This document shows, one piece after another, positions 1 to 64,000 of a stretch of DNA of 64,000 bases. The notes under the pieces were generated by a model. The model had not been told where the DNA came from and did no database searches. It saw nothing but the letters and a program-made list of their open reading frames with translations. Each line of letters opens with the position of its first letter. Positions within the stretch are counted from its first letter, which is position 1. A program made the position numbers and the translations under genes. This stretch comes from a virus. Lineage: Duplodnaviria; Caudoviricetes. The stretch lies in IMG/VR virus record IMGVR_UViG_3300034374_009547, one strand, 5' to 3'.

Positions 1-86
1 ACGGCGCTGAGAAAAAGGGCAAGCCAGAGACAGCCGATAAAGGTGCAGGTTCACCTCTAAACGGTGCTCCAAAAAGAGCGAAGTAA
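1..86 (+). CDS. 3' end of an upstream head-module gene (partial; possibly prohead core protein)
   Basis: Open frame ...GAEKKGKPETADKGAGSPLNGAPKRAK ending in TAA at 84-86; SD (AAGGA) for the next gene overlaps the stop. Identity inferred from position only. Confidence 0.5.
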   Translation, partial: GAEKKGKPETADKGAGSPLNGAPKRAK

Positions 87-96
87 GGACTGACGT

Positions 97-720
97 ATGA
101 GACTACTGAACGAACATTTGAGCTTTGATGCTGCTAAAATGGTTGTTGAGTCTGCCAACGAAGGCAAAGATCTTTACATGAAAGGTATTTGCATTCAAGG
201 CGGAGTACGCAACGCAAATCAGCGTGTTTATCCCGTTAACGAGATTGGCAGGGCTGTCACCACACTCAACGAACAAATTAGTGGTGGCTACTCAGTGTTA
301 GGCGAAGTAGATCATCCAGATGGACTTAATATTAACTTAGATCGTGTAAGCCATATGATTACAGAAATGTGGATGGATGGCCCAAACGGTTACGGTAAAC
401 TAAAAGTACTACCAACTCCGATGGGACAATTAGTTAAAACAATGCTAGAAAGCGGCGTTAAACTAGGTGTTTCATCGAGAGGTAGTGGTAATGTAAGCGA
501 AAGCGGTAACGGTGAAGTATCAGATTTTGAAATTATTACCGTAGACGTTGTGGCGCAGCCAAGTGCGCCAGGCGCATACCCAACACCGATATACGAACAC
601 CTTATGAACACCCGAGGAGGGTATAAGGCGTTCCAAACATCAAGGGAAGTTCAAGGCGACAAACAGGCACAAAAATATTTAAAAGAGAGCTTATTAGATG
701 TAATAAGCAAACTCCGCTAA
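97..720 (+). CDS. gp21: Prohead core protein protease (T4 gp21-like)
   Basis: Motifs NANQRVYP, LGEVDHP, GVSSRGSG, DVVAQPSAPGAYP typical of T4-like prohead proteases; upstream of scaffold and capsid genes. Confidence 0.95.
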   Translation: MRLLNEHLSFDAAKMVVESANEGKDLYMKGICIQGGVRNANQRVYPVNEIGRAVTTLNEQISGGYSVLGEVDHPDGLNINLDRVSHMITEMWMDGPNGYGKLKVLPTPMGQLVKTMLESGVKLGVSSRGSGNVSESGNGEVSDFEIITVDVVAQPSAPGAYPTPIYEHLMNTRGGYKAFQTSREVQGDKQAQKYLKESLLDVISKLR

Positions 721-737
721 CTAGGAGAGGATATAAA

Positions 738-1829
738 ATGTTAGATGCACTAAAATCACTCTTCGAAAACACTGCACTATCGGAAGAAGTGCGCTCAGAA
801 CTAGAAGAAGCATGGAACGCAAAGGTGAAAGAAAATCGCCTTCAGGTCACTGCGGAACTACGTGAAGAATTTGCTAAAAAGTATGAGCATGATAAAGACA
901 CAATGGTTGAAGCCATTGATGCTATGATGACTGAGAAACTTAGCGAAGAAATTGCAGAATTCCAAGAAGATCGTAAGCAATTAGCTGAAGCAAAAGCAAA
1001 ATTTGCTATTGCACAGCGTAAAAATGCTAATCTAATGAAATCATTTGTTAGTGAACAACTAGCAAAAGAAATCAAAGAACTACACTCAGATCAAAAAGCA
1101 ATGGCTGACAAGTTTGTTGCTCTAGAAGAGTTTGTAGTTGAGTCGCTTGCAAAAGAACTTGCAGAGTTTTATGAAGACAAAAAAGATCTTGCTGAAACAA
1201 AAGTACGTCTTGTACGTGAAGGCAAAGCTCATGTCAATAAAGTTAAAAAAGACTTTATTGAAAAAAGTGCAGCGTTGGTATCTGAAACCGTGTCAAAAGG
1301 TCTTAAAAAAGAGATCTCGGCACTTAAAGAAGATATTGATCAAGCACGTAAAAATGATTTCGGTCGTAAATTATTCGAAGCATTTGCTAACGAATATTCA
1401 CATAGCTATTTAAATGAGAAATCAGAAACAGCTAAACTTTTAAAAGTTATTGACGCAAAAGACAAGCAACTTTCAGAAGCTAAAAATGTGGCGGCGAAAG
1501 CAGTAAAACTTGTGGAAAACAAAGAATCGCAAATTAAAACAATTAACGAATCGGTGGCCCGCAAAGAAACAATTAGCGGTCTAATCTCACCATTGAGCAA
1601 AGACCAACAATCAATTATGATGGATTTACTGGAATCAGTTCAAACAGCAAAACTACGTTCTGCTTTTGATAAGTATCTACCGGCAGTATTAGACGGTAAA
1701 GGTCCAGCAAAACAAAAGGCAGTATTAGCAGAGGCAAAAGAAGTAACAGGCAACAGAACACAAAATGACGTAAAAGCAGACGTAGATCACAATGTGATTG
1801 ATATAAAACGTCTAGCTGGATTAAATTAA
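738..1829 (+). CDS. gp22: Prohead core scaffold protein (T4 gp22-like)
   Basis: E/K-rich coiled-coil protein between protease and major capsid genes; SD AGGAGAGG. Confidence 0.85.
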   Translation: MLDALKSLFENTALSEEVRSELEEAWNAKVKENRLQVTAELREEFAKKYEHDKDTMVEAIDAMMTEKLSEEIAEFQEDRKQLAEAKAKFAIAQRKNANLMKSFVSEQLAKEIKELHSDQKAMADKFVALEEFVVESLAKELAEFYEDKKDLAETKVRLVREGKAHVNKVKKDFIEKSAALVSETVSKGLKKEISALKEDIDQARKNDFGRKLFEAFANEYSHSYLNEKSETAKLLKVIDAKDKQLSEAKNVAAKAVKLVENKESQIKTINESVARKETISGLISPLSKDQQSIMMDLLESVQTAKLRSAFDKYLPAVLDGKGPAKQKAVLAEAKEVTGNRTQNDVKADVDHNVIDIKRLAGLN

Positions 1830-1839
1830 GGAGAAACCT

Positions 1840-3012
1840 ATGTCAGAACTACTAGAAAGTCGCTGGCAAGATACAAAAACAGCACTTCTTGAAGGCCTAT
1901 CAGGCAATAAGAAAGCAGTAATGGCTTCAACATTAGAAAATACTCGCAAGTATTTGGCTGAAACTGCAACTGCTGGTGCTACATCTGCCGGTAACATCGC
2001 AACACTTAACCGTGTTATCCTACCAGTGATTAGACGTGTTATGCCAACCGTCATCGCTAATGAAATCGTTGGTGTTCAACCAATGACTGGACCAGTTGGT
2101 CAAATTCACACACTACGTGTTCGCTACAGCGACACAGCAGGCTCAGGCGCAGCAGGCGCAGTAGCTGGTGAAGAAGCACTATCACCATTCAAAATCGCAG
2201 AAGCATATTCAGGTAATGCTACAACAGCAAAAGCTGATGCAACTGCGGCACTAGAAGGTGCAGCTGGTAACAGACTAAGCATCCAGATCTTGAAACAGAC
2301 CGTGGAAGCTAAATCACGTAAGCTATCAGCACGTTGGACATTTGAAGCGGCACAAGACGCTCAAGCACAACACGGTATCGACGTAGAAGCAGAAATCATG
2401 GCTGCACTAGCACAAGAGATTACTGCAGAAATCGACCAAGAGATTCTAGCATCTCTAAACACACTAGCAGGAACAGGTACAGACACATTTAACCAAGCGG
2501 CTGTATCAGGTACTGCAACATTCGTTGGTGACGAACATGCTGCACTAGCAGTATTAGTTAACCGCGCAGCAAACCGCATCGCACAGCGTACACGCCGTGG
2601 TGCAGGTAACTGGGCTGTTGTTTCACCAGCAATCCTAACCGTACTACAAAGTGCAACTACATCAGCATTTGCACGTACTACAGAGGGTACATTTGAAGCA
2701 CCGACAAACACAAAAATGGTTGGTACATTGAACAATGCAATGAAAGTATATGTAAACACATATGCAGCAGACGACGATGTACTAGTTGGTTACAAAGGTA
2801 CTAGCGAATCAGACGCAGCAGCGTTCTACTGCCCATACATCCCATTGATGAGCAGTGGCGTTGTACTAGATCCGACATCATTCGAACCAGTTGTGAGCTT
2901 CATGACACGTTACGGATATGTTGAGCTATCAAACACAGCATCGTCGCTAGGTAACGCAGCTGACTACCTAGAAAAGGTAGAAGTAAACAGCGGAAACCTA
3001 AGCTTCAGCTAA
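1840..3012 (+). CDS. gp23: Major capsid protein (T4 gp23-like)
   Basis: GVQPMTGPVGQIHTLR, AKSRKLSARWTFEAAQD, AAAFYCPYIPL, FMTRYG motifs; SD AAGGAG; probable maturation site LAE|T. Confidence 0.97.
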   Translation: MSELLESRWQDTKTALLEGLSGNKKAVMASTLENTRKYLAETATAGATSAGNIATLNRVILPVIRRVMPTVIANEIVGVQPMTGPVGQIHTLRVRYSDTAGSGAAGAVAGEEALSPFKIAEAYSGNATTAKADATAALEGAAGNRLSIQILKQTVEAKSRKLSARWTFEAAQDAQAQHGIDVEAEIMAALAQEITAEIDQEILASLNTLAGTGTDTFNQAAVSGTATFVGDEHAALAVLVNRAANRIAQRTRRGAGNWAVVSPAILTVLQSATTSAFARTTEGTFEAPTNTKMVGTLNNAMKVYVNTYAADDDVLVGYKGTSESDAAAFYCPYIPLMSSGVVLDPTSFEPVVSFMTRYGYVELSNTASSLGNAADYLEKVEVNSGNLSFS

Positions 3013-3032
3013 GTTTAAACTTATATGATTTT

Positions 3033-43525: not shown

Positions 43526-44976
43526 AACGTAAAGAAATCCTAACAGAAAATCCTCTAGCAATTGCACTTATGGGCGCACTAGTTGGTATGGGACTAGAAA
43601 AAGAAAAAGCAAAAAAAGCAGCAGCACAAGCTGTAAATCAAGCACAATCAGGTAAAGCAGCACCAGCAGCAGCAACAGCACCACAGGGTGCAGATTATAA
43701 TCAAATTATGAAACGTGGCAGTAGAGGCGAAGGTGTTAAGCAACTACAAATAAACTTAGGTATGACAGGTCCAGAAGTTGATGGTATTTTTGGTCCTGCT
43801 ACAGAAAAAGCAGTTAAAACATTTCAACAAAATTCAGGTGCAAAGGTTGATGGTATTGTTGGTCCAGAAACTAGAGGCATGATTGAAAAATATGCAGGTA
43901 ATAATGATGAACCAGCAGCAAGTTCTCCTCCACAAAGTACAACCCCAAGTTCAACAAAGCCGTGGAGAGCTGTAAATCCTCAACCACCAGGTTATGGACG
44001 TCAAGTAAATAAAATTCTAATTACAGATGGTAGTAGATATTATTATGTAGGTGCCGAACCAGAAAATGGAAAATATACAGGCGGTGGACCAGTAAAGATA
44101 GGTGCCGACGGCAAACCAACTGGTATTGAAAATTTAAAAGGATTTCAAACTGATGCTGATAACGTAGACATGAGCGGGGTAAAGGAGTCAATTATGACAG
44201 ACAAAAAACAATTAGACGAAGCAAGCATTAACATTAATGGTGCTGATGCAAGTGAAGTAGCAGAAATACTACGTATGATGCAACTAGCAGGAGCACCGGG
44301 TGCAAAAGTAGTTGAACCAGACGATATTAATCCAGGTCCAAAACCTTGCCCAATATGCGGAAAGATTCACGGTCCAAGTCAACCAATGGGCGGCTGTGGT
44401 GCAAAACCAAAAGAGCCAGGCATGGGCGATATGATCAAATTAATGGCCCCAGAAGAAGCAGTTGCAGAAGGCGAAGATAAAATAAACAATCCAGCATATT
44501 TAGATATAATAAAAAATTTACTAATGCGAGCAAAAAGCACTGAAGAATTTAAAGATTATCTAAACAATGAAATGGACGAAGATCCTAAATTTGGACAATG
44601 GATGAATTATTATGCAAAACACACTCCACTAGGTAAAAGAGCAATAAACGTTTATTTCGGTCGTGACGTAATAGGCGAAGAAGAAGATTATGACGGTGAT
44701 TTTCAAGATGCTAGTACAGAGCCAGATGAAACATATATGAATGATGTTAGTGCTAGTATTCCAGCAGGAAATGACATGCACAAAGAAAAAGGATCATACC
44801 CAGCAACAGCAGGTGGTGACAATCCTATGAATACCAAAGAAAGCATCAAGGCAAGATTGTTACAAGCTCTTTCAGAAAAGAAAGCAAAACCAGATTATAT
44901 TGATATTGACGGTGACGGTGACAAAAAAGAGCCAATGAAAAAAGCCATCAAAGATAAAGAGAAAAAGAAGGACTAA
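43522..44976 (+). CDS. Putative internal head/core protein with peptidoglycan-binding domain and C-terminal DxDxDG motif
   Basis: MKRGSRGEGVKQLQ...VDGIFGPATEKAVKTFQQ...VDGIVGPET (PG_binding_1); PDYIDIDGDGDKKEPMKKA. Confidence 0.75.
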   Translation: MKRKEILTENPLAIALMGALVGMGLEKEKAKKAAAQAVNQAQSGKAAPAAATAPQGADYNQIMKRGSRGEGVKQLQINLGMTGPEVDGIFGPATEKAVKTFQQNSGAKVDGIVGPETRGMIEKYAGNNDEPAASSPPQSTTPSSTKPWRAVNPQPPGYGRQVNKILITDGSRYYYVGAEPENGKYTGGGPVKIGADGKPTGIENLKGFQTDADNVDMSGVKESIMTDKKQLDEASININGADASEVAEILRMMQLAGAPGAKVVEPDDINPGPKPCPICGKIHGPSQPMGGCGAKPKEPGMGDMIKLMAPEEAVAEGEDKINNPAYLDIIKNLLMRAKSTEEFKDYLNNEMDEDPKFGQWMNYYAKHTPLGKRAINVYFGRDVIGEEEDYDGDFQDASTEPDETYMNDVSASIPAGNDMHKEKGSYPATAGGDNPMNTKESIKARLLQALSEKKAKPDYIDIDGDGDKKEPMKKAIKDKEKKKD

Positions 44977-44994
44977 TTCATCCCCCCAGAACTC

Positions 44995-45021
44995 AATAGC
45001 GCCTTAGGGCGCTATTTTTTT
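44995..45021 (+). terminator. Rho-independent terminator
   Basis: AATAGCGCC-TTAG-GGCGCTATT plus T-tract. Confidence 0.9.
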
Positions 45022-45034
45022 GGTTAAATACAAC

Positions 45035-46615
45035 ATGAGTAAAAGTTTAGACGGTGTATTAACAAAAAAAGCAAATCAGAAAGAAACATATACAGAAACA
45101 CAAATTCAAGATCTATTGAATTGTATGGATCCTGATGAAGGTTACTTGTATTTTGCAAAACGATTTGCACACATTCAGCATCCAGTAAAAGGAAAACTTT
45201 TGTTTGATCCTTACGAATATCAGTTGAGGTTGATGCATTCGTATCATAATTTTAGATTTAATATTAATATGATGCCTAGACAAACAGGTAAAACTACATG
45301 TGCTAGTATATATTTGTGTTGGTATGCAATGTTCAATCCAGATCAAACTATTCTTATTGCAGCACACAAATACACAGGTGCGCAGGAGATTATGCAGCGT
45401 ATACGCTATGTATATGAACTATGTCCTGATTACATAAGAGCAGGTGTAACTAGTTATAATAAAGGTAGTATTGAGTTTGAAAATGGGTCACGTATTATCA
45501 GTCAAACAACAACAGGCACTACTGGACGTGGTTTGTCTATCTCGCTACTATATTGTGACGAGTTTGCGTTTGTGCAACCAAACATTGCTGAAGAATTTTG
45601 GACTTCAATTTCGCCTACACTAGCAACAGGTGGTAGAGCTATTATTACAAGCACACCAAACTCAGACGAAGATACATTTGCAGTTATATGGAAACAAGCT
45701 GAACAAAAGTTTGATGAGCATGGAAATGAACAAGAAATTGGTATAAATGGTTTTCACGCTTATAGAGCTCATTGGAGTGAACACCCCGACCGTGACGACG
45801 AATGGAAAGTTAATGAAATAGGTCGTATTGGTGAAGAAATGTTTCGTAGAGAATATGGCTGTGAATTTTTAATCTTTGATGAAACACTGATCAATAGTAT
45901 AAAACTTGCTGCAATGGAAGGCATTGAACCTACATTGCATATGGGTCAAGTGCGATGGTACAAAAAACCTGATGCAAAAAAATCTTATGTTATAGGATTA
46001 GATCCTGCTATGGGAACAGGTGGAGATTTTGCTGCTATACAAGTGATAGAACTGCCTACATATGAACAAGTTGCTGAGTGGCAACATAACACTACAGCTA
46101 TTCCAGGACAAATTAGGGTTTTGCGAGATATTTGTAGTTATATTGCAGAAGAAACAAAAACTACTTCTAATATTTATTGGAGCGTTGAAAACAATGGTAT
46201 AGGAGAAGCAGCACTACTTGTAATACAAGATTTTGGCGAAGAAAACATTCCTGGATTATTCATTAGTGAACCAATACGAAAAGGTCATGTAAGAAAATTT
46301 AGAAAAGGTTTTAATACTACACATGGAAGTAAAACTACAAGTTGTGCTAGATTAAAAACAATGATTGAAAATGATAAACTAATATTAAAAAGTAAGCCTT
46401 GTATTAGTGAACTTAAAGCATACATAGCAGCAGGTAGTAGTTTTCAAGCAAAACCAGGACATCATGATGATTTAATTAGCAGTTTAATTTTAACATTAAG
46501 AATAATGAGCGTTATGAAAGATTGGGATCCTACGGTTTATAATACGTTTAGCCAAATTGAAGCAGATGAAGAATATGAAATGCCCATGCCTATCTTCGTA
46601 AGTAGCAGTTATTGA
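45035..46615 (+). CDS. gp17: Terminase large subunit (T4 gp17-like)
   Basis: PRQTGKTT (Walker A), LLYCDEFAF (Walker B), ITSTPN, GLDPAMGTGGDFA, HHDDLIS; ATG 45035 sits 4 nt after GTTAAATA. Confidence 0.95.
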   Translation: MSKSLDGVLTKKANQKETYTETQIQDLLNCMDPDEGYLYFAKRFAHIQHPVKGKLLFDPYEYQLRLMHSYHNFRFNINMMPRQTGKTTCASIYLCWYAMFNPDQTILIAAHKYTGAQEIMQRIRYVYELCPDYIRAGVTSYNKGSIEFENGSRIISQTTTGTTGRGLSISLLYCDEFAFVQPNIAEEFWTSISPTLATGGRAIITSTPNSDEDTFAVIWKQAEQKFDEHGNEQEIGINGFHAYRAHWSEHPDRDDEWKVNEIGRIGEEMFRREYGCEFLIFDETLINSIKLAAMEGIEPTLHMGQVRWYKKPDAKKSYVIGLDPAMGTGGDFAAIQVIELPTYEQVAEWQHNTTAIPGQIRVLRDICSYIAEETKTTSNIYWSVENNGIGEAALLVIQDFGEENIPGLFISEPIRKGHVRKFRKGFNTTHGSKTTSCARLKTMIENDKLILKSKPCISELKAYIAAGSSFQAKPGHHDDLISSLILTLRIMSVMKDWDPTVYNTFSQIEADEEYEMPMPIFVSSSY

Positions 46616-46628
46616 TAAATAGTATACA

Positions 46629-48851
46629 ATGAGAAATTTAAATACCGTAGCAGAACAATTATTTAATGAAATTAGAGGACGTTATTCAAGCGTGTCAATC
46701 GGCGATGCTGATGGTAACATTACCAATGAACCTAAGCAAGCAAGATTTTATGAATTTGATTTTAAATCAGGAATGCAGGATTTAGGAAAAGTAAGTGTAA
46801 CACTTGACGAAGAATCTGGTGTTACAATTATGTATAATAATAATTTTACAGAAAATGCACTAGTAAGTGAAAAACAAGATTGGTATAATTTTTTAAAAAA
46901 TATTAGAATGTTTGCAAAAAAACGTTTATTAAATTTCGAAGTAAGAGATATTAATAAATCAAATCTAACTAAACGTGATTATTCTTATCTAGCTAAAAAT
47001 CGTAGCGGAGATCAAACTATGGCTGAGTCTAAAATGTACGGCAGTAATAAAACAAGTTTTCAAAAAATTGGTAATGCAAAATTATCAATTAAACATACAA
47101 AACCTATGGAAGAAAGTGAAAGTAGAACAAAAAATATTGGTTCTATTTACATCGAAAATAACCAAGGTGAAAAATTTAAATATCCTTACAAACATCTTAG
47201 TGGTGCAAGAGCTTTAGCTATGCATGTTAGCGAAGGTGGCAATCCTTATGACGACTTTGGTAAACACATTACAGGTTTAAGTGAAGAACTATCTAATCTC
47301 CGCAAGTTCAAAACTTATATGGGCCGTAGCAGTGTAATGGCAGAAAGCCTTGCTGAACATATGGATATTGTTAATGAAAGAATTGCAACAATTAAAAAGT
47401 CTATACAAAATCTTCAAAAGGAATCTCATTACAAACAAGCATTTGAAGAATTTGTACCAATTGAAGACATAGAAGTACCAGAAGATATATCAGCTAATTG
47501 GATCGACCAATTAACCGTAAAACAATTTAATGAAGAATTAAAAGATGTATTTCCATACATTTACAATTTAGTTAGTGAAAATACAAAACCAGAAGAAATA
47601 ACTTTTGAAGACATTTTTTATGAAGCAAAAGATACAATGATAAAAACACAACCTGGTGAAGATTCTGTATCGCAAGTTGCACAAAGATTCAGAGTGCCTG
47701 CAGAAAAAATGAAAGATTTTATTCAAGACGTCATCGAAGTTAATGGGTTAGATAGTGACAAACTACAACCAGGAATAGATTTGGTTATACCAGCAGGTTA
47801 TATTCCTGGTAATGTATCATCGAGTCCAAGACCGCAAATGAGACCAACTAATAATACAAATATCGGCAGTACAGAAATAGCACCAAATGGTCAAGTTACA
47901 GGCAGCACAAGAGGCTTCAATACAGAGTCTGCAATTGATGCTGCATTTGATAAATTGTTAGGACAATTTGCAGATAATTTTAGTGCGCAAGTAGAAGGCG
48001 ATACAGATGAAGGCAACGCATACGCACATGCTGTAAGACAAGCAAAAATGAATGGCGCTAAAAAAGGCGACAAAATAGATCATCCAGATTCAGACGAAGA
48101 TGATATTGTAATTGAAAAAGACAAAACACCATTAGGCGAGTTTATACTAAGTTACTTTGATAGACAAACAGGCCAGTTTCCAAAAGGCGAAACAGCAGTA
48201 TTGACCAGTGTAGAAAAAGACTATGGCGATCAATACGTCAAACCAGCAAGTCAGTTCATAGAACGTCTAGGTCAAGTATACGAAAAATATCAACAGAAAA
48301 AACTAGGACAAGTTAATTTAGACGAAGCAGGTGCCGGAGACTTTGAATCTCAATTCAGACGTATTCAACAAAGAGGTGGCAACGTAGCAGTTAGTATACA
48401 TGGACTTCTTAAAGACTCTGGGTTAGATGCAGATCAAATTATGGGATTTGATCCTAATGTTCCGAGCAACCGTACTAAAGTTAACCAATTTCAACAAGGT
48501 AATCAAGAAGAAGTTTTACAAAAAGCACAGCAGGCATTGGGCAGCGCACAAGGCGGACAAGCACAGCCAGCAGCAGGTAGTGCGCAAGGCGGACAAGATT
48601 TAGGCAATGGCTTCCAAAAAATAAAACATCCACAATATGGTGATGCTATATTGGATACTCAAAGCGGAAGTGTTATTTTTGTAAATGCAGGAAAATTAAG
48701 ATCTCCAGGCAAATATGCAGTTTTACAAAGAAATGGAAAAATTCAAACGACAAACCAATTAGGACCGATGTCTACACAAGCAATGCAAGATGCAGGTTTA
48801 GGCGAGTCACAAAATTTAAACAGAATTCAAGAGTTAGCCGGTTTAAGATAA
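46629..48851 (+). CDS. Putative virion/core protein with an internal LysM-like domain
   Basis: QPGEDSVSQVAQRF...IEVNGLDSDKLQPGIDLVIP (LysM); ATG 7 nt after GATAAATA (46614-21). Confidence 0.65.
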   Translation: MRNLNTVAEQLFNEIRGRYSSVSIGDADGNITNEPKQARFYEFDFKSGMQDLGKVSVTLDEESGVTIMYNNNFTENALVSEKQDWYNFLKNIRMFAKKRLLNFEVRDINKSNLTKRDYSYLAKNRSGDQTMAESKMYGSNKTSFQKIGNAKLSIKHTKPMEESESRTKNIGSIYIENNQGEKFKYPYKHLSGARALAMHVSEGGNPYDDFGKHITGLSEELSNLRKFKTYMGRSSVMAESLAEHMDIVNERIATIKKSIQNLQKESHYKQAFEEFVPIEDIEVPEDISANWIDQLTVKQFNEELKDVFPYIYNLVSENTKPEEITFEDIFYEAKDTMIKTQPGEDSVSQVAQRFRVPAEKMKDFIQDVIEVNGLDSDKLQPGIDLVIPAGYIPGNVSSSPRPQMRPTNNTNIGSTEIAPNGQVTGSTRGFNTESAIDAAFDKLLGQFADNFSAQVEGDTDEGNAYAHAVRQAKMNGAKKGDKIDHPDSDEDDIVIEKDKTPLGEFILSYFDRQTGQFPKGETAVLTSVEKDYGDQYVKPASQFIERLGQVYEKYQQKKLGQVNLDEAGAGDFESQFRRIQQRGGNVAVSIHGLLKDSGLDADQIMGFDPNVPSNRTKVNQFQQGNQEEVLQKAQQALGSAQGGQAQPAAGSAQGGQDLGNGFQKIKHPQYGDAILDTQSGSVIFVNAGKLRSPGKYAVLQRNGKIQTTNQLGPMSTQAMQDAGLGESQNLNRIQELAGLR

Positions 48852-50014: not shown

Positions 50015-51109
50015 ATGGCTACTAAAGCATTCGATCCTTCAAAGTTTCGAAACTCATTAACAAAATCTATTAAAGGTATGAGTGCAGGCTTTAATGATCC
50101 ACAAGATTGGATCAGCACAGGCAACTATGCACTTAACTATCTGCTAAGTGGTGATTTCCGCAAAGGTATTCCGCTAGGTAAAGTAAGCGTGTTTGCAGGC
50201 GAATCAGGCGCAGGCAAGTCTTACATTGTGTCTGGTAATATTGTAAAGTCAGCACAAGAGCAAGACATCTTTGTGGTGCTTATTGACTCAGAAAACGCAC
50301 TAGATCAAACATGGCTAGAAGCATTAGGTGTTGACTGCGATGACAGCAAACTACTAAAACTTAACATGGCAATGATTGACGATGTTGCTAAAACTATTAG
50401 CACATTTATGGATGATTATAAATCAATGAACGAAGAAGATCGTCCTAAAGTATTGTTTGTTGTTGACTCATTAGGTATGCTTATGTCACCAACTGAAGTA
50501 AATCAGTTTGAAGCAGGTGATATGAAGGGTGATATGGGTCGTAAGGCAAAAGCACTGAAGGCATTGGTTACTAACTGCGTAAATATGTTTGGTAGTTACA
50601 ATGTTGGTATGTGTGTTACTAACCACACTTATGCATCGCAGGATATGTTTGATCCAGATGATAAGATTTCAGGTGGTAGTGGCTTTGTGTATGCAAGTTC
50701 AATGGTTGTAGCAATGAAAAAGCTGAAACTAAAAGAAGATGCAGACGGCAACAAAACATCACAAGTACACGGTATTAGAGCAGCGTGTAAGGTTATGAAA
50801 ACACGTTACGCTAAACCGTTTGAAGCAGTACAAGTGAAGATTCCTTATGAAACAGGAATGGATCCATATTCAGGCATGTTTGATTTGCTTGAAGCAAAAG
50901 GACTGCTTGAAAAACAAGGTAATCGCTACAAGTATGTTGATAGCGAAGGAAATGAAACACTAGAATATCGTAAAAACTGGACAGGTGAACTACTCGAAAT
51001 GATTATGGCCGATTTACCGGCAAAAGAAGCACAAATGGTAAATATCGCTAACGCAACCGACGAAGAAGTTGTGATTGATCATAACGAGGAGTTAGCTGAG
51101 AATGAATGA
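50015..51109 (+). CDS. uvsX: RecA-like recombinase UvsX
   Basis: FAGESGAGKS (Walker A), IDSENA, VVDSLGM, GDMGRKAK, NHTY, SGGSGFVYASS. Confidence 0.95.
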   Translation: MATKAFDPSKFRNSLTKSIKGMSAGFNDPQDWISTGNYALNYLLSGDFRKGIPLGKVSVFAGESGAGKSYIVSGNIVKSAQEQDIFVVLIDSENALDQTWLEALGVDCDDSKLLKLNMAMIDDVAKTISTFMDDYKSMNEEDRPKVLFVVDSLGMLMSPTEVNQFEAGDMKGDMGRKAKALKALVTNCVNMFGSYNVGMCVTNHTYASQDMFDPDDKISGGSGFVYASSMVVAMKKLKLKEDADGNKTSQVHGIRAACKVMKTRYAKPFEAVQVKIPYETGMDPYSGMFDLLEAKGLLEKQGNRYKYVDSEGNETLEYRKNWTGELLEMIMADLPAKEAQMVNIANATDEEVVIDHNEELAENE

Positions 51110-53421: not shown

Positions 53422-54038
53422 AAAAAGTATTTGAATACTGGATGCCAGATACAGATGAACACTTTGAAAGATTAATTGCAAAAAGAGTTAAAAATGGTGG
53501 CCCGCCGCAGTATCAAGATGATGTAAGAGATGAAGCATACAAGTATGTAAGTGACTTTAACATTGCAGTTGACATAGGTGCTAATGTTGGTCTGTGGTCT
53601 AAACCTCTTACAGAAAAGTTTAACCAAGTAATAGCTTACGAACCTCTTGAGCAAGTATATTCGTGCTTAGAAAGAAATGTAAGTGGACTGCCTGTACAAA
53701 TTCATAAACACGCATTAGGCAGTGTTAATGATGTAGTTGAAATGGTATTTGACGAAGAAAACACAGGCGGCAGTTTTGTTAGTGAAATTGGCACCGGTAG
53801 TATTCAAATTAAAAGATTAGATGATTTAAATTTACCAAAGTTTGGATTATTAAAAATTGATTGTGAAAGACATGAATTAGAAGTGTTAAAAGGCGCAATG
53901 GATACTATCCTTAGATACAAACCAATTATAGTATGTGAACAGCAAGCTGACACAGATCAATGTGCAGGTATGTATTTGAAATCTTTTGGCGCCAGAGAAA
54001 TAACAAACGTAAGGAAAGACTATATCTTTGGATGGTAA
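53418..54038 (+). CDS. FkbM-family methyltransferase (second copy)
   Basis: VDIGANVG, AYEP, RLDDLNLPKFGLLKIDCERHE. Confidence 0.9.
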   Translation: MKKVFEYWMPDTDEHFERLIAKRVKNGGPPQYQDDVRDEAYKYVSDFNIAVDIGANVGLWSKPLTEKFNQVIAYEPLEQVYSCLERNVSGLPVQIHKHALGSVNDVVEMVFDEENTGGSFVSEIGTGSIQIKRLDDLNLPKFGLLKIDCERHELEVLKGAMDTILRYKPIIVCEQQADTDQCAGMYLKSFGAREITNVRKDYIFGW

Positions 54039-56428: not shown

Positions 56429-58107
56429 TGAAAGTATTTGTAGGATGGGATAGCAGAGAAGATATTGCTTATCAAGTTTGTAAAAGTAGTATTGAAGAAA
56501 CAAGTAGTGTACCTGTAGAAATTATTCCATTGAAACAAAAGTCACTGAGAGGTGACGGTGTATACACTCGTGAAATAGATCAACTCGCAAGCACAGAATT
56601 TACATTTACAAGATTTTTAATTCCGCATTTGTGTAACTATGAAGGTTGGGCATTGTTTATTGACTGCGATTTTGTTTTTCTAGAAGATATTAAACTGCTT
56701 TGGGATCAACGTGACGAAAGCAAAGCTGTAATGTGTGCTCATCATGATTATACACCTAAACCTGGGTCAACTAAAATGGATGGACAAGTACAACACGCTT
56801 ATCCAAGAAAAAATTGGTCGAGTATGATGCTAATAAATTGTGGTCATCCTGGTAATGCTAAATTAACTTTAGATGTAGTAAATGACATGGCAAGAACTGG
56901 TGCATACTTTCATAGATTTAGCTGGTTAAAAGACGAAGAAGTAGGTGAGCTTAGTCATGAATGGAATTGGCTAGTAGGTTGGTATGAAGAACCGGTTGAT
57001 GGAAAGCCAAAAGCACTACATTACACAGAAGGCGGACCTTGGTTTGATGATTATGCTACCTGTGAATATAATATAGAATGGTATAGAGCTCATATTCAAT
57101 ATGCTAAAAAAATGGAGCAAAGTTATCAATATAAGTTATATAGGGAACGTAACAAAGAAATAGATGTCGACGATTTATCCTATACGGAGTCAAAAAAAAA
57201 ATTAATTAAGCAATTTTTAAATAACTTAATTGATCCTACCCAAGTTTATTTTAAAAATGAAACAATAGAGAATGATGATGATATGGGAATAAAAACTGCT
57301 GCAATTGCTGTGCAAAAAGAAGAATTTAATTTAGAAAAAAAGGGATTAGAATACGATCCTTATCTGAAAGCATTTATAAATGGCAGCGGCGGTTTTATTA
57401 GCGACTTTGATAGAGAACAATATACAGATAACACTCTTGTTATTAGAGGCTTAGGCGGCGGTGGACAAAAAGCAATAAAATATTGTTTAGAAAATAAAAG
57501 AGATTTCTACGCAATTGATACTGGTTATATCCAACCAGGAACAAAAAAAGAATACCATCGTATTACAAAAAATAGTTTACAAGCATTAAATTTTAAACCT
57601 ATGGCAAGCGATCGTTTAGCAAAATTAAATTGGAAACCTGGCAAACCAAAAACTGGAAGTAAAATTTTAGTTGTTCCTCCGAGCGAAAAAGTTATGAAAT
57701 TTTACGATCAAGATCTTGATGCTTGGATGAAATTAACAATTGAAAACATCAAAAAACATACTGATCGTCCTATTGAAGTTAGATTAAAACCAGGAAGATC
57801 AGAAAGAGTTACAAAAAACACAATTTGGGATGCTATGGCTAATGATGTGTATTGCCTAGTAACATTTAATAGTATTGCTGCATCAGAAGCATTCTTATTT
57901 GGATTGCCTGCTATTGCACTAGCACCAAATGCTGCTAGTGCATTTTGCAATACTAGTATTGCAGACATTGAAAACAATTTACGTATACCTCATAGATCAA
58001 CACAAGTAGAACTTGCAAATTTTTTAAGTTATAATCAATTTACACAAGCAGAAATGAAAGACGGAACAGCATGGAGAATTCTCACAGAAAATTATGAAAG
58101 TAGTTAG
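56428..58107 (+). CDS. Two-domain glycosyltransferase: GT8-like N-terminus plus capsule-biosynthesis (KpsC/KpsS-like) C-terminus
   Basis: FVGWDSRE, STEFTFTRF, FIDCDF, YPRKNWSS, HYTEGGPW; C-terminal RPIEVRLKP, CLVTFNSIAASEAFLFGLP. Confidence 0.75.
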   Translation: MKVFVGWDSREDIAYQVCKSSIEETSSVPVEIIPLKQKSLRGDGVYTREIDQLASTEFTFTRFLIPHLCNYEGWALFIDCDFVFLEDIKLLWDQRDESKAVMCAHHDYTPKPGSTKMDGQVQHAYPRKNWSSMMLINCGHPGNAKLTLDVVNDMARTGAYFHRFSWLKDEEVGELSHEWNWLVGWYEEPVDGKPKALHYTEGGPWFDDYATCEYNIEWYRAHIQYAKKMEQSYQYKLYRERNKEIDVDDLSYTESKKKLIKQFLNNLIDPTQVYFKNETIENDDDMGIKTAAIAVQKEEFNLEKKGLEYDPYLKAFINGSGGFISDFDREQYTDNTLVIRGLGGGGQKAIKYCLENKRDFYAIDTGYIQPGTKKEYHRITKNSLQALNFKPMASDRLAKLNWKPGKPKTGSKILVVPPSEKVMKFYDQDLDAWMKLTIENIKKHTDRPIEVRLKPGRSERVTKNTIWDAMANDVYCLVTFNSIAASEAFLFGLPAIALAPNAASAFCNTSIADIENNLRIPHRSTQVELANFLSYNQFTQAEMKDGTAWRILTENYESS

Positions 58108-59023
58108 TTATCTAAGTGTTGTTCCTACTAAAAACAGCAATCAACAAAAAACAGAATTACTAAGAAGGTATGTAGAAGGCGTTCAAAAAAATGGTGACAC
58201 TGGTATACTACACACAGGCTATCAACTTATCCCTGCAGATGTAGCAGTAATTCAAGGATGGGTGTATGAAAATAAAGCACCTGTACATTTAAAGTTACGT
58301 AATGATGTTATAGAATATCAAAAATTGCGAGACAGGTATACGTGTGCTGCTGATGCAAATTTATTAAATTATGCAAACAAACAAAATCCATTAGGATATC
58401 TACGGTATAGTTTTAATGGAGTTTTCCCTCATACTGGAATATATTGTGATAATAACATAGATGTTCAACGATGGAATAAAATTTCTGCAAATTATAAGAT
58501 AAAGATAGAACCAACAAAAAGAAAAGGTAAATGGATTATACTTATGCTCCAACGAAACGGAGGTTGGAGTATGCAAGGAGAAGATGTACAAGATTGGGCA
58601 TTAAAAACTATAAAAAGAATACGCAAATACACAGATAGACCTATTCTAATAAGAGCACATCCTGGCGACCAAAAAGCACAGCATTATCTAAATGAAAGAC
58701 GCACTAGACTAAAAAATTTACCAGGAGTAAAAATATCTCCAATTGGCAGAAGTTTAGAAGAAGATTTAACTAAATGTTGGGCAGTTGTAAATCATAATAG
58801 TAGTGCAGTAGTTGGTCCTATGATACAAGGCTATCATACATTTATTACAGATGCAGGAGCAAGTCAATGTAGAGACGCTGCAAATACCGAATTGCAGTAT
58901 ATCGAGAATCCTTTAGAATTTGATAGAGAAAAATGGGCTCAACGAATAAGTATGTTTACTTGGAACTTTGCAGAATTATCATCTGGTGAATGCTGGTCAC
59001 ATATGAAAAATTATTGCCAATAA
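58094..59023 (+). CDS. Capsule-biosynthesis-like (KpsC/KpsS-type) glycosyltransferase
   Basis: RPILIRAHPGD, WAVVNHNSSAVVGPMIQG, WNFAELSSG. Confidence 0.6.
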   Translation: MKVVSYLSVVPTKNSNQQKTELLRRYVEGVQKNGDTGILHTGYQLIPADVAVIQGWVYENKAPVHLKLRNDVIEYQKLRDRYTCAADANLLNYANKQNPLGYLRYSFNGVFPHTGIYCDNNIDVQRWNKISANYKIKIEPTKRKGKWIILMLQRNGGWSMQGEDVQDWALKTIKRIRKYTDRPILIRAHPGDQKAQHYLNERRTRLKNLPGVKISPIGRSLEEDLTKCWAVVNHNSSAVVGPMIQGYHTFITDAGASQCRDAANTELQYIENPLEFDREKWAQRISMFTWNFAELSSGECWSHMKNYCQ

Positions 59024-59835
59024 GATTCATTGCGTTGCACAATTAAATCTTTAGGTTTGTTACTTTTACCTACTTCTTTTCTGTCACCTTTTAGGTGATC
59101 AAAATATTTTCCTAAATCGCTATTAATCATAGGATGTCCTTCACCGTTAATCAAGTTACCACTTATATTGTAATACTTGCTTTGAGGACTTTTACTTTGT
59201 ATTGTTTTTCTAACTTCTTCAAATACATAACTATCGTGCCATTCTTCCATTTTGAAAATTCCGTTTTCTGCATCTTCGTAAACACGTTCAAATTCTTTTA
59301 AAAAGTTTTGCCCAATTTTAGTTTTCAAATTAATACCGTAGAAGCCGCACTCTGGCCATTTCTTACCTCTACCCAAATAGCTCATCCATGCTTGTTCTGG
59401 ACAAAATCTTGCAATGTCGTTGTATGTTGCAGGTGAATGTACATATGTATCTGCATCTAACCAAATTAACCAATCTGTATTACAACGTTGTGCAGCATCA
59501 AACACAGCATACACTTTGTTAGCAAAACGTATGGCATGCCATTTAAATTCTTTATGCCAGTCTCTTGGTCTACGTGCTTTTATCTCAGGTGGACATTTAC
59601 CATTTGCTTTTGGTACATTTTTCCATCGTTCCTTAAACGCAACAAGTTTTGGAAGTTCTGCTTTTTGATCTAAAATTATAATACGACTATCATTTGTTTG
59701 CGGTACGCAATCTTCTGCATATAAGTACAATGTAAATTGTTTATCAATGTTTTTACTAAAACTATCGATAAATCGTTGCCCGTACAAGTCAAGTACAGGT
59801 TTATGAAAAGTTGAAACAAATGAAATAGTTTGCAC
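59011..59835 (-). CDS. GT-A-fold glycosyltransferase
   Basis: FANKVYA, IWLDADT (DxD), ECGF, EEWHDSYVF, DHLKG; GTG start with SD AAGGA. Confidence 0.7.
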   Translation of the reverse strand: MQTISFVSTFHKPVLDLYGQRFIDSFSKNIDKQFTLYLYAEDCVPQTNDSRIIILDQKAELPKLVAFKERWKNVPKANGKCPPEIKARRPRDWHKEFKWHAIRFANKVYAVFDAAQRCNTDWLIWLDADTYVHSPATYNDIARFCPEQAWMSYLGRGKKWPECGFYGINLKTKIGQNFLKEFERVYEDAENGIFKMEEWHDSYVFEEVRKTIQSKSPQSKYYNISGNLINGEGHPMINSDLGKYFDHLKGDRKEVGKSNKPKDLIVQRNESYWQ

Positions 59836-59847
59836 AATAAAGTCCTT

Positions 59848-59872
59848 GTTAAATAATACTGGAGTATTTACA
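59848..59872. promoter_or_regulatory. Face-to-face late-type promoters
   Basis: GTTAAATA on plus (59848-55) and TGTAAATA on minus (59872-65) between divergent genes. Confidence 0.55.
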
Positions 59873-59873
59873 A

Positions 59874-60719
59874 ATGAGATTTAGTTTATTTCCGCAATTT
59901 GGTGCAATGAACAGCAAACCTGTCTTTGAAGCATTTGAACACAGCTTACGCAAAGCTGGCCATATGGTAGAATACGATAGTATGCACGCCGATGTAGCTG
60001 TTATATGGAGCGTGTTATTTCACGGCAGAATGGCTGCAAATAAACCTATTTGGGATTACTATACAAAGACAGGTAAAAAAGTTATTGTATTAGAAGTTGG
60101 CGGAATCAAAAGAGGAACAACATGGAAGGTAGGACTTAATGGTATTAATCGTGATGGTTATTTTGGCAATACTGGTGCCAGCGGTGATCGTGCTACTGCG
60201 CTCGAAATAAATCTTAAACAATGGAAAGACGAAGGCGAGTATATATTAATATGCGGCCAACATGATAAAAGTCTACAATGGCAGAATATGCCACGTATGA
60301 GTCATTGGATAATGAATATAATAGATGAAGTACAAAGGTATTGTGATAAACCAATTGTTTTTAGACCACATCCAAGATGTAGATTAGATCACATTGAAAG
60401 ACAATACAAAAATGTTTATAGAGACGATCCTATAAAACTTGATAATACATACGACGACTATAATTTAAGTTTTAAAGATTGTCATGCTGTAATAAGTTGG
60501 AGTAGTAATCCAGGACCGCAAGCTATATTAGCAGGTGTTCCAGTTTTTTGTGGTCCAAGTAGTTTAGCATATGATGTAGGTAACAAAGATATTAGTACAA
60601 TAAAATATCCATTAAAACCAAATAGAAAACAATGGCTTAACGATTACGCTTGGACTGAATTTACTATAGAAGAAATAGCCAACGGTATCCCTTTGAAAAG
60701 ATTGACTTCTCGCTTATAA
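59874..60719 (+). CDS. Capsule-biosynthesis-like (KpsC/KpsS-type) glycosyltransferase, third paralogue
   Basis: KPIVFRPHP, AVISWSSNPGPQAILAGVP, FTIEEIANG; SD GGAG. Confidence 0.6.
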   Translation: MRFSLFPQFGAMNSKPVFEAFEHSLRKAGHMVEYDSMHADVAVIWSVLFHGRMAANKPIWDYYTKTGKKVIVLEVGGIKRGTTWKVGLNGINRDGYFGNTGASGDRATALEINLKQWKDEGEYILICGQHDKSLQWQNMPRMSHWIMNIIDEVQRYCDKPIVFRPHPRCRLDHIERQYKNVYRDDPIKLDNTYDDYNLSFKDCHAVISWSSNPGPQAILAGVPVFCGPSSLAYDVGNKDISTIKYPLKPNRKQWLNDYAWTEFTIEEIANGIPLKRLTSRL

Positions 60720-60730
60720 TTTGTTATACT
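60702..60730 (+). promoter_or_regulatory. Sigma70-type promoter; predicted start site coincides with ATG
   Basis: TTGACT (60702-07), 17 nt, TATACT (60725-30), ATG at 60737. Confidence 0.8.
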
Positions 60731-60736
60731 TAACGT

Positions 60737-61921
60737 ATGGAATTTATAGAAGATTATCTACAACATATTTGTGAAAAAAAGCTAGATAGCTTTAACAGGG
60801 TTGATTCAATTTACTTTAGTATTTACAAACAAGTTACTAAAGGAATTGGATTGACAGATAGGCAATACAATCTTATACACAAAAAAATAAGTGAATATTT
60901 TGACATTAGCGTAGATGTACAAACAAAAATACCTATGCGCAAAATTGATAGAAGCAAGTATATAAAGTTAGTTGATACATCAGATGTCTATGGACACGAT
61001 AATGTTTATGAAAGTTACAAATCTAAATGGACATGGATTAAAGTACGGTTTCCTTTTAGTAAAAAAGATATTTGTAAAATTGAAAAATTAAAATATGATG
61101 TTGGCATAAGTGAATACTATCATAGTAAAGGTTCTCACGAACACTATTTTAAATTGTCTTACATTAATGCATTTCATGTTTGTAAATATTTTAAAAATAC
61201 AGAATTTGATATTGCAGATGATATTTTATTATATGCAGATGAAACAAAAAAAGTATTAGAAAACAGAGACAATCATGTTCCTATGCTTAGTGGAAATACA
61301 ATAATCAATGTACATGATAACATTACTAATCTAACAAAAAATTTAACTTACATACAAAAAGTTGATCAACATATAAGATACGGTTATGAAATACAAAGAA
61401 TTAAACCACGCTATCTTATAGAAAAAATTGCATATAGAAATAATCGTATTGTTCCTGTTGATCCAAATGAAAACAGCCTGTATGATATTGCAAAAGCAAT
61501 AAATACTTTGCAAAGATTTCCTTTGCTTGTATTAATTGATACTGATTTACCAAATTCTAGTATGTATGAACAAATAGTAGAATGGCACACTGCTTTTTCT
61601 AATTTTGTTGAAGTTAAACAACAAAGTGTTTTGTTTAGAGTAGAAACAAAAGATATTGAAAATAATTCATTAAATGATTTTGTAAAAGATAAACAACTAA
61701 ACAATTGGGTTGACGAAAACACAAAAGTAGTGTATATTAAAAAGAACAAATTACCTAAATTACTAATCGATAGTTTTAAACCAATTTGTGCTGTTAGTAA
61801 AACTGCTACAAGATGGGGTGGTAATTTAGGTGCGTATGTAGATCATAATTGTGATTGTGTTATTGTACATGAAACAATCGATTATGGATTTTACAAAGGA
61901 AGATTTAGTGACAACCTGTAA
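60737..61921 (+). CDS. Hypothetical protein (394 aa)
   Basis: Long AT-rich ORF preceding and overlapping uvsW; no motif recognised. Confidence 0.75.
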   Translation: MEFIEDYLQHICEKKLDSFNRVDSIYFSIYKQVTKGIGLTDRQYNLIHKKISEYFDISVDVQTKIPMRKIDRSKYIKLVDTSDVYGHDNVYESYKSKWTWIKVRFPFSKKDICKIEKLKYDVGISEYYHSKGSHEHYFKLSYINAFHVCKYFKNTEFDIADDILLYADETKKVLENRDNHVPMLSGNTIINVHDNITNLTKNLTYIQKVDQHIRYGYEIQRIKPRYLIEKIAYRNNRIVPVDPNENSLYDIAKAINTLQRFPLLVLIDTDLPNSSMYEQIVEWHTAFSNFVEVKQQSVLFRVETKDIENNSLNDFVKDKQLNNWVDENTKVVYIKKNKLPKLLIDSFKPICAVSKTATRWGGNLGAYVDHNCDCVIVHETIDYGFYKGRFSDNL

Positions 61922-63371
61922 ACTTATTATCGAGGATGAAGTAAACATCAAACTAGAAGGATTAGATGTAGATGTACGGAGAAAGTTATCAAATGCTCTC
62001 AAGTTCGATGTGCCATACGCACGATATATGCCGCAGTATAAACTTGGACGTTGGGACGGCAAAGTTGCTTTTTTTGGTATTGGGGGTACAGGCTATGTTA
62101 ATCATCTTGACGTCATTGTGGATGTACTTGAAAAAAACAGAGTAAGCATTGTAGACATTGAAGACAATCGTCATCCTATTCAACTTGACTTTCCACAAGT
62201 AACTGAACGCTATTGGGCAGATCAAGGTGTATGTTGGCCTAAAGGACATCCAGCCGAAGGCGAAGAAATCATTCTGCGTGACTATCAAGTAGAAGCAATC
62301 AATAACTTTGCAAACAATCCACAGAGTCTACAACAGATTGCTACAGGTGCAGGCAAGACTATTACTACTGCTACACTATCACATATGAGTGAAAAGTATG
62401 GACGCAGTTTGGTTATTGTCCCCAATAAGTCGCTAGTTGAGCAAACTGAAGAAGACTATATTAACTGCGGCTTAGATGTAGGTGTATACTTTGGTGATAG
62501 AAAGATGTTAAACAAAACACATACTATTTGTACATGGCAAAGTTTAAACATACTTGACAAACGACACAAAGATGGCGAAGCAGTATTATCACTAGCAGAG
62601 TTTTTAGAAGGTGTTAGCACGGTAATTGTAGACGAGGTACACCAAGCAAAAGCAGAAGTATTAAAAAACTTACTAACACGCAACTTGCGTAATGCTCCAA
62701 TACGTTGGGGATTAACTGGCACCATACCTAAAGAGAAGTTTGAATTTGAATCAATACATGCAAGTTTAGGTCCAGTTATTGGAGAAATTACAGCAAAAGA
62801 ATTACAAGACAAAGGTGTACTATCGCAATGTCATGTTAATATTGTACAACTTATTGATACGGTAGCACATAATAATTATCAAGAAGAATTAAAATACTTA
62901 ACAACAAATAAAGCAAGAATTGAATATATAGGCAAATTATTAAACACGGTAAAACAATCAGGCAATACTCTAATACTTGTTGATAGGATTTCAGCAGGCG
63001 AGATCCTACAAGAACTTATTCCAGGATCTACTTTTGTTAAAGGTGATGTTAAACTAAAGGATAGAAAAGATGCATATGACGAAATTAACACGGCAGATAA
63101 TCAAGTGGTTATTGCCACTTATGGTGTTGCTGCTGTTGGTATTAATATCCCTCGCATCTTTAATTTGGTTCTTATTGAACCCGGAAAATCTTTTGTTAGA
63201 GTTATTCAAAGTATAGGCAGAGGCGTAAGAAAGGCAAAGGACAAAGACTTCGTACAAATATGGGATCTTACAAGCACTTGTAAGTTTGCGAAGCGGCACC
63301 TTACTCAACGTAAAAAGTTTTACAAAGAGGCGCAGTATCCATTTACAATAGAAAAAGTAGATTGGAATTAA
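61908..63371 (+). CDS. uvsW: SF2 DNA helicase (T4 UvsW-like)
   Basis: LRDYQ, ATGAGKT, VDEVH, GLTGT, ATYGVAAVGINI, QSIGRGVR; GTG at 61908 with SD AAGGA preferred over 61851. Confidence 0.92.
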   Translation: MTTCKLIIEDEVNIKLEGLDVDVRRKLSNALKFDVPYARYMPQYKLGRWDGKVAFFGIGGTGYVNHLDVIVDVLEKNRVSIVDIEDNRHPIQLDFPQVTERYWADQGVCWPKGHPAEGEEIILRDYQVEAINNFANNPQSLQQIATGAGKTITTATLSHMSEKYGRSLVIVPNKSLVEQTEEDYINCGLDVGVYFGDRKMLNKTHTICTWQSLNILDKRHKDGEAVLSLAEFLEGVSTVIVDEVHQAKAEVLKNLLTRNLRNAPIRWGLTGTIPKEKFEFESIHASLGPVIGEITAKELQDKGVLSQCHVNIVQLIDTVAHNNYQEELKYLTTNKARIEYIGKLLNTVKQSGNTLILVDRISAGEILQELIPGSTFVKGDVKLKDRKDAYDEINTADNQVVIATYGVAAVGINIPRIFNLVLIEPGKSFVRVIQSIGRGVRKAKDKDFVQIWDLTSTCKFAKRHLTQRKKFYKEAQYPFTIEKVDWN

Positions 63372-63878
63372 ATGAATATACTTACACTAGAAAACAAAAG
63401 TTTTAATTTAAATCAATTACCGGACGAAGTTGACGATACAATGAGGTTTAGTGTACTAGATAATAGCAATCCTCAAGATCCTGATTTCTTTTTTAATCCA
63501 TTAATATTTTTAGAAAGTTTTAACTCACCAGCAGCAGTAATTGAAATCAACGGTAATGAAATTGTAATGCCTTTAGATTGGTGTATTGCAGTTGGTTGTA
63601 GTCATGCAGGAAGTGACTTAGAAGTACTACCTTTAACAAGTTTAAATGAAAGAGGTTTTGAAGCATTCCTTTTTAATCCACTTACAGGTTATCAACCAAA
63701 ATTTGGTACAATTGAAATAGTTAATTTTTATAATGATGTTAAATGGTATTTTCCAAAAATGAAAAACGGGCAATTGTTAAGTGTGCCAATTACAGAAGGT
63801 GAAAATCCTTTCTGTGCATACTTTGTTAAAGATATTAGTAGACAATGCGAAATTGTTGACTTTGGTAAATTATTATAG
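63372..63878 (+). CDS. Hypothetical protein (168 aa)
   Basis: ORF abutting uvsW; no motif recognised. Confidence 0.75.
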   Translation: MNILTLENKSFNLNQLPDEVDDTMRFSVLDNSNPQDPDFFFNPLIFLESFNSPAAVIEINGNEIVMPLDWCIAVGCSHAGSDLEVLPLTSLNERGFEAFLFNPLTGYQPKFGTIEIVNFYNDVKWYFPKMKNGQLLSVPITEGENPFCAYFVKDISRQCEIVDFGKLL

Positions 63879-63887
63879 GAGAACAAA

Positions 63888-64000
63888 ATGAAAGCAGGAA
63901 AGATTTGGGGACAAACTGAACTTATCCACGCTAACGGTGTGTTAGAGTTTCACCGTATTGAATTCAAAGGTGGCTACAAGTGTAGCGAACACGAACACAG
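63888..64000 (+). CDS. Cupin-fold protein, 5' part (runs off the window)
   Basis: SD AGGAG; MKAGKIWGQTELIHANGVLEFHRIEFKGGYKCSEHEH. Confidence 0.6.
   Translation, partial: MKAGKIWGQTELIHANGVLEFHRIEFKGGYKCSEHEH

Follow-up and report, generated by a model that had tools for sequence, protein, structure and literature searches.

Loss of a short restriction site from a phage genome is a textbook observation: staphylococcal phage K is without GATC and Bacillus phages are without GGCC. Bacteria that carry such a system often have its site depleted in their own DNA too, though less strongly. Many Type II sites are pentanucleotides centred on W, such as CCWGG, GGWCC, GCWGC, GAWTC and CGWCG, and the HpyCH4III/TaaI/Bst4CI class recognises ACN^GT. 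A survey by Rusinov et al. (2018, PMC6286503) found that avoidance falls almost exclusively on orthodox Type II sites in non-temperate dsDNA phages, and that roughly one viral genome in ten shows it in complete or near-complete form. Here we describe the purge of a five-base word, ACWGT, which is its own reverse complement (a pseudo-palindrome). The window, as we call the whole stretch of 64,000 bases analysed, comes from an uncultured estuarine jumbo (giant) phage, and a sequencing-run search showed that this phage recurs in many metagenomes labelled freshwater, aquatic or marine.

Neither ACAGT (0 copies) nor ACTGT (0 copies) is present in the window. A 3rd-order Markov model predicts 92.3 ACWGT sites and base composition 132.1, while shuffling synonymous codons inside genes gives 108.6 ± 6.5 (minimum 87 in 500 shuffles). 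The window-wide avoidance claimed by a first-pass annotation is therefore borne out, with no copy against the 92–132 expected under the Markov, codon-shuffled and composition models. The same annotation had called for 5-mers to be counted against a codon-shuffled expectation, and ACWGT proved to be the most depleted of all. When 5-mers of the window are ranked by depletion it comes lowest (z = −9.6, the next word having z = −3.8), and it is the only outlier. A shorter motif or dinucleotide bias had been named there as an alternative cause, but it fails: shorter words are still common in the window (CAGT/ACTG, 397 times; ACAG/CTGT, 471 times) and do not explain the depletion, and the Markov and codon-shuffled models absorb composition. 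ACWGT is missing from the 2.8 kb of non-coding DNA, from all three reading frames, from both strands and from genes of either orientation. The ACWGT-free stretch spans the entire window (1..64000) and belongs to at least 111,459 contiguous bases, reaching from ~28.1 kb before the window to ~19.3 kb past its end. In this longer sequence, with flanks taken from public assemblies, the count is 0 versus 172 (Markov) or 234 (composition) expected, and the site density of relatives applied to the same length gives an expectation of about 350–380 sites.

Codon choice follows the word closely. Threonine is encoded by ACA or ACT in 1,516 of 1,688 cases (90%), yet these two codons are missing from the 75 Thr-Val junctions, where the rare ACC (47) or ACG (28) takes their place; the ACC-GT at 538..542 (+ strand) is one example. 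This reversal had been reported in the first-pass annotation, as had a lack of AGT after NAC, and full counts agree on both points, AGT following NAC 0 times and NAT 70 times. Its eleven example coordinates were partly accurate, nine lying within 3 bases of an ACSGT and two (1267 and 25797) not. TGT never follows NAC in the window, and CAG is used in 0 of 53 cases where CAR is preceded by A and followed by T. ACCGT and ACGGT, described earlier as abundant and tolerated, are indeed so: codon shuffles yield 84.9 ± 7.7 copies of ACSGT, and the window has 162. This ~2-fold enrichment indicates that the selective agent distinguishes W from S. The excess over codon-shuffled expectation is distributed over several products, namely ACSGT (+77), GCWGT/ACWGC (+63), AGWGT/ACWCT (+43) and ATWGT/ACWAT (+38), and such mixed escape routes fit any change that destroys the word, not one mutational process. 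We conclude that the target of selection is the word in the DNA and that, in whichever of the three reading frames it would fall, it has been removed through synonymous changes.

The word is frequent in related phages. Two long relatives, taken as whole records, carry 452 ACWGT sites in 132.6 kb and 584 in 186.3 kb (3.1–3.4 per kb), and counts are normal at 75 of 80 terminase-linked loci and at 80 of 80 capsid-linked loci (about 155 of 160 related loci). Among these loci, the purge is common only to L031, L033, L038 and part of L001; an AU test on a single origin of the two ACWGT-free terminase clades gave p = 0.31. At orthologous positions where some relative has ACWGT, none of 250 is kept in the window, versus 4–14% for control motifs, which supports the purge and carries little information on the mutational route.

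Sister lineages have purged other palindromes. Genome-wide, G004 has 0 CATG against 392 expected and 55 AGCT against 373, and further purges are seen for GTAC (0 observed, 137 expected), AGCT (0/61) and AATT (0/43, L007). Per locus, GCGC is found 0 times where 7–10 are expected and GTWAC 2–3 times where 15–31 are expected; CGCG, CTAG, GCWGC and CTGCAG are likewise purged in some sister loci. Where sites persist in these purges, they number 1–3. Most of the purged words are classical Type IIP specificities. GTWAC was reported by Hiraoka et al. (2022, PMC8919816) as a marine motif that carries methylation and has no entry in REBASE. A GTAC-free sibling has normal ACWGT counts (57 sites in 21 kb) and shares its water samples with the window phage, so the difference follows host, not habitat. 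The ACWGT purge is thus a lineage trait, one case within a family-wide patchwork of palindrome purges.

Comparison with close relatives allows individual replacements to be read. The terminase region (44974..48317, + strand) is 99.25% identical to the IMG/VR contig L001 and neither copy has ACWGT, while L001 has 5 sites in the part more diverged from the window. Where L001 has ACAGT (GAC AGT, Asp-Ser), the window has ACTCA (GAC TCA, Asp-Ser; 50286..50290, + strand), a synonymous three-base switch of the serine codon. The ACTGT of L001 (AAC TGT) corresponds to ACTGC (AAC TGC, Asn-Cys) at 50574..50578 (+), also synonymous, and at 53659..53663 (+) the window has ATTCG (TAT TCG, Tyr-Ser) for ACAGT (TAC AGT), with both codons altered and the protein unchanged. 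Another contig, L093, has 15 ACWGT sites in its first 3 kb and then none, a switch that resembles that of L001. The ACWGT-bearing parts of L093 and L001 are poor in AATT, and the status of each contig as a single molecule is putative. The mosaic contig L082/L180 has 27–29 ACWGT sites, none of them beyond the boundary at which it becomes 98.6% identical to the window; we dropped it as a recombinant, since its junction is unique to one assembly and may be an assembly chimera.

We infer that the ACWGT purge is probably the avoidance of a host restriction system recognising this word. The first-pass annotation had proposed selection by a W-specific host defence, and this is supported, with good though not full confidence, by relatives that keep 3.1–3.4 sites per kb and by sisters that have each purged another palindrome. 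The host, or a common strain of it, would carry a defence that cuts DNA at this five-base pseudo-palindrome, most likely an orthodox Type II restriction-modification system. The phage lineage has been selected to lose every ACWGT from its genome, and incoming unmethylated DNA with no sites could not be cleaved. The structural and replication genes of the phage are T4-like, and no integrase is present in the 111 kb inspected of this partial genome. No enzyme or methylase specific for ACWGT was found in the full-text literature searched, where the word appears only in primers and unrelated uses, and ACWGT, ACAGT and ACTGT are absent from the supplements of a methylome survey of 230 genomes (PMC4752239). 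The SAM synthetase of the phage, about 50% identical to proteins of many phyla, is uninformative for host prediction. If a 7-deazaguanine modification replaced every G of the phage DNA, removing a site that contains G might be superfluous; a search of five relatives, each represented by a partial record, gave no match to the TGT/DpdA family (PF01702).

Could such a depletion arise without a defence? Mutational decay, such as would follow if a methylated C within ACWGT were deaminated, compositional bias or a sequencing or assembly artefact could each deplete the word, and some platforms are known to miscall modified motifs systematically. However, the same sequence was independently assembled in many JGI and ENA samples, its replacements are multi-base codon switches that preserve the protein, and composition is already accounted for in the expectations. 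Zero sites versus 170–380 expected is far outside any mutational equilibrium. Word positions 2 and 4 do differ most often from relatives, but per-position patterns are similar in control motifs, and the C>T/G>A products ATWGT/ACWAT show a modest excess (z = 2.9) compared with ACSGT (z = 10). These explanations are very improbable and close to refuted. A host defence other than classical Type II restriction is unlikely, whether a Type III or Type IIS enzyme reading asymmetric ACAGT in either orientation or an RNA-cutting toxin reading ACWGU in transcripts. ACAGT on either strand makes up the same set as ACWGT, so an asymmetric site and a pseudo-palindrome are indistinguishable from sequence alone, and 42 of the 47 genes in the window lie on one strand. 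Every sister purge nevertheless concerns a true palindrome, which points to dimeric DNA recognition; an RNA toxin would not require the purging of non-coding DNA or of both W variants; and a bias in orientation is enough to make Type III sites harmless, their avoidance being very rare (PMC6286503).

The agent might instead be the phage's own. If the phage encoded a nuclease specific for ACWGT but no matching methylase, a site-free genome would confer self-immunity while DNA of the host or of rival phages was destroyed. The absolute purge is in line with this, and some restriction enzymes that recognise five bases belong to the GIY-YIG group, yet we consider it unlikely given the gene content. 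The only nucleases seen were a homing endonuclease of 141 aa that resembles SegE and a pair similar to gp46/47, and no restriction-type nuclease gene without a methylase was found in the 111 kb inspected, out of a 201.7-kb contig (JGI 3300025828 Ga0208547_1000001) and a genome perhaps near 350 kb, going by completeness estimates for relatives. Four orphan ORFs at 58094..61921 (309, 274, 281 and 394 aa, the second on the minus strand) were checked as candidate nucleases and had no match in Pfam, PHROGs, PADLOC or NCBIfam; the orphan ORFs of the window have counterparts of the same size and order at the corresponding place in the GTAC-purged sibling, which retains ACWGT. Extended to the family, a phage-borne agent requires that ~ten sister lineages each have a distinct nuclease gene, and the residual sites in sister purges fit a self-encoded nuclease poorly, being more easily tolerated by a host enzyme. 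That every sister lineage carries its own methylase-less nuclease matched to its purged palindrome, the purge being self-immunity, seems quite improbable; if true, jumbo phages would wield restriction enzymes as weapons rather than evade them.

Under host restriction avoidance, the reading that we prefer, the purge implies an abundant estuarine bacterium with an ACWGT-specific defence, a specificity of which we found no description. The patchwork of palindromes lost by similar, co-occurring jumbo phages would then amount to barcodes of host restriction specificities. Such barcodes could be matched to methylated motifs in long-read metagenomes and so help to pair uncultured phages with their hosts. 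The patchwork may also serve as a natural series for the rate and completeness of phage genome rewriting under restriction pressure. As the mechanism is textbook, the value of these observations is that of a resource and a pointer, not of a new principle.

The site-purge phenomenon is already known; the new elements are the motif, ACWGT, and the way in which purges of different words are distributed over the family. Like the restriction-site avoidance described for lytic dsDNA phages (PMC6286503), the present case involves a short palindrome that is wholly or almost wholly lost, by synonymous change, in a lineage-specific manner and in a phage of putatively virulent type. It differs in that ACWGT was not found as a described specificity and in that ~ten palindromes are purged across uncultured jumbo-phage sisters. 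With the HpyCH4III/TaaI/Bst4CI class, ACWGT shares the outer AC..GT and the length of five bases. Unlike the sites of that class, ACSGT is here enriched about two-fold, so the central base is read as W; this enrichment (162 versus 85 expected) rules out an HpyCH4III-type enzyme recognising ACNGT, as the first-pass annotation had argued from the tolerance of the S variants. In layout, ACWGT matches the W-centred Type II sites and GTWAC, with two defined bases, a central W and two defined bases, and two of these W-centred words, GCWGC and GTWAC, are themselves purged in sister lineages.

ACWGT (ACAGT plus ACTGT, a set that is its own reverse complement) is missing from the entire window. A full count found zero copies of either word in 64,000 bases, bearing out the window-wide avoidance proposed in the first-pass annotation. 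A third-order Markov model predicts 92 copies and base composition 132. When synonymous codons were permuted within each gene, 500 shuffles gave 108.6 ± 6.5 copies, with a minimum of 87. With a z score of −9.6, ACWGT was the sole outlier among all 5-mers (next, −3.8). The 4-mers that it contains are frequent (CAGT/ACTG, 397; ACAG/CTGT, 471), so neither a shorter word nor dinucleotide bias accounts for the gap. The absence extends to a composite of 111,459 contiguous bases, built outwards from the window through public contigs encoding exactly identical proteins, where 172 (Markov) or 234 (composition) copies are expected and none occurs.

Codon choice reflects this avoidance. Although 90% of Thr codons in the window are ACA or ACT, all 75 Thr–Val junctions are written with ACC or ACG, as the first-pass annotation had claimed for the dozens it checked; nine of its eleven example positions check out and two do not. 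It was also right that AGT is shunned at NAC–Ser junctions (0 after NAC vs 70 after NAT). TGT never follows NAC, and CAG is used in 0 of 53 positions that follow a codon-final A and precede a codon-initial T. Where ACWGT is present in a relative, the window instead carries sequence that leaves the protein unchanged, in some cases through Ser codon changes of several bases (GAC AGT in the relative and GAC TCA in the window; TAC AGT and TAT TCG, respectively). The excess over shuffled expectation was +77 for ACSGT (ACCGT and ACGGT), +63 for GCWGT/ACWGC, +43 for AGWGT/ACWCT and +38 for ATWGT/ACWAT. The reported tolerance of the S-centred variants thus proved to be an excess of nearly twofold (162 vs 85 expected from shuffling). 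The agent therefore tells a central W from S, which excludes an ACNGT enzyme, the class that had already been argued against.

The window belongs to an uncultured T4-like jumbo phage. Its genes code for a prohead protease, a gp23-type major capsid protein, tail sheath and tube proteins, a large terminase, a gp32-like SSB, a RecA/UvsX-like protein, sugar-tailoring enzymes, a helicase and two giant proteins (3,129 and 3,617 aa). The nearest cultured relative is Pseudomonas phage PA5oct (52% terminase protein identity). The window lies within a 201,730-base JGI contig and was assembled in many further JGI and ENA samples; the sequence also occurs in about 20 metagenome runs (15 studies; freshwater, aquatic or marine labels). 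Judged by CheckV estimates for its relatives, the complete genome would measure about 350 kb. Both Gs of ACWGT precede a T; if this phage modified G in certain contexts only, for example by a 7-deazaguanine (DpdA-type) pathway, the site might, speculatively, be left unprotected. Five partial records of relatives contained no PF01702 (TGT/DpdA) member. Just past the window end, a SAM synthetase gene adjoins genes for KDO-8-P synthase and CMP-KDO synthetase (L081:11127-12203 and neighbours); in a GTAC-purged sibling phage, other genes occupy this position.

Hundreds of relatives are present in IMG/VR. Among 80 terminase-linked loci (protein identity 81–89%, except L001, whose terminase is identical to the window's), ACWGT was normal or slightly raised in 75. 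It was absent only from L031, L033 and L038, a second clade, and from the stretch of L001 that matches the window at 99% identity. A single origin of both ACWGT-free terminase clades was not rejected (AU test, p = 0.31). All 80 capsid-linked loci, with protein identity up to 95%, had normal ACWGT, and the whole records of two relatives, 132.6 and 186.3 kb long, contained 452 and 584 copies, respectively. Two loci, L001 (5200-8474) and L093 (1-3000), change abruptly between ACWGT-free and ACWGT-rich sequence; their ACWGT-bearing parts are depleted in AATT (8 observed/26 expected and 2/19, respectively). These switches could reflect recombination between differently purged lineages or assembly chimeras.

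The most informative result is that a different palindrome is purged in each sister lineage. The whole record of one relative, G004, lacks CATG (0 observed/392 expected) and is depleted in AGCT (55/373). Elsewhere, the purged word is GTAC (L013-L017, 0/137), AGCT (L018 and L025, 0/61), AATT (L007, 0/43), GCGC (L002, L003 and L006, 0/7–10 per locus) or GTWAC (L027-L030 and L051, 2–3/15–31 per locus), and further loci are purged of CGCG, CTAG, GCWGC or CTGCAG. Without exception the purged words are palindromic, and most of them match classical Type II specificities; a published study of marine metagenomes reported GTWAC as methylated and without a REBASE match (PMC8919816). The sibling shares 68–82% nucleotide identity and identical gene order with the window phage and co-occurs with it in the same samples; it has 0 of 63 expected GTAC and normal ACWGT (57 in 21 kb).

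Other word biases were observed. CTTA/TAAG, AACC/GGTT and CACA/TGTG, which are not palindromic, occur less often than expected in the window phage and in the long records of relatives G001 and G004 (L265-L281; z −7 to −12), a family-wide bias unrelated to the lineage-specific purges. The most depleted 6-mer in the window, TAAATA/TATTTA (65 observed vs 107 expected), resembles the T4 late-promoter core TATAAATA and may for that reason be excluded from coding sequence. Milder palindrome depletion over 111 kb of the window phage (CATG, 236 vs 377 expected; AGCT, 263 vs 394; GTGCAC, 3 vs 24; GCTAGC, 0 vs 11; also CTGCAG and AAGCTT) suggests that other restriction systems were encountered in the past or act more weakly.

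What, then, removed ACWGT? A sequencing or assembly artefact was rejected because the window sequence recurs in independent assemblies. Mutational bias was also rejected, since the excess is distributed over several escape routes, deamination products are not dominant and the replacements preserve the proteins. The chief alternative is that the phage encodes its own nuclease without a methylase, the site-free genome then providing self-immunity. In the 111 kb inspected, of a genome spanning at least the 201,730-base contig, nucleases were limited to a small SegE-like homing endonuclease and a gp46/47-like pair. Orphan ORFs of this region, checked as possible nucleases, had no match in Pfam, PHROGs, PADLOC or NCBIfam; four lie at 58094-61921, one on the opposite strand. 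The window's orphan ORFs are matched in size and order by ORFs of the sibling, those for the four at the corresponding place, and the sibling keeps ACWGT. Self-nucleases also fit poorly with the residual sites left by the sister purges, and we consider this explanation unlikely.

The probable cause is that the phage avoids a Type II-like host system that specifically recognises ACWGT. Closely related phages would infect hosts or host strains with differing, mobile restriction-modification systems. The patchwork of palindromes is the pattern expected under such systems and agrees with published work (PMC6286503), and we therefore favor host avoidance. Neither the searchable literature nor the supplementary data of a 230-genome methylome survey (PMC4752239) yielded an ACWGT-specific enzyme or methylase, REBASE being outside the search, and the recognition word appears undescribed. 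The purge is mainly valuable as a handle for host–phage pairing and for the discovery of new restriction specificities. Rusinov et al. (PMC6286503) found site avoidance almost confined to orthodox Type II sites in non-temperate dsDNA phages, and complete or nearly so in about one-tenth of viral genomes. We conclude that the ACWGT purge is a genuine instance of this known phenomenon, very clean and well controlled.
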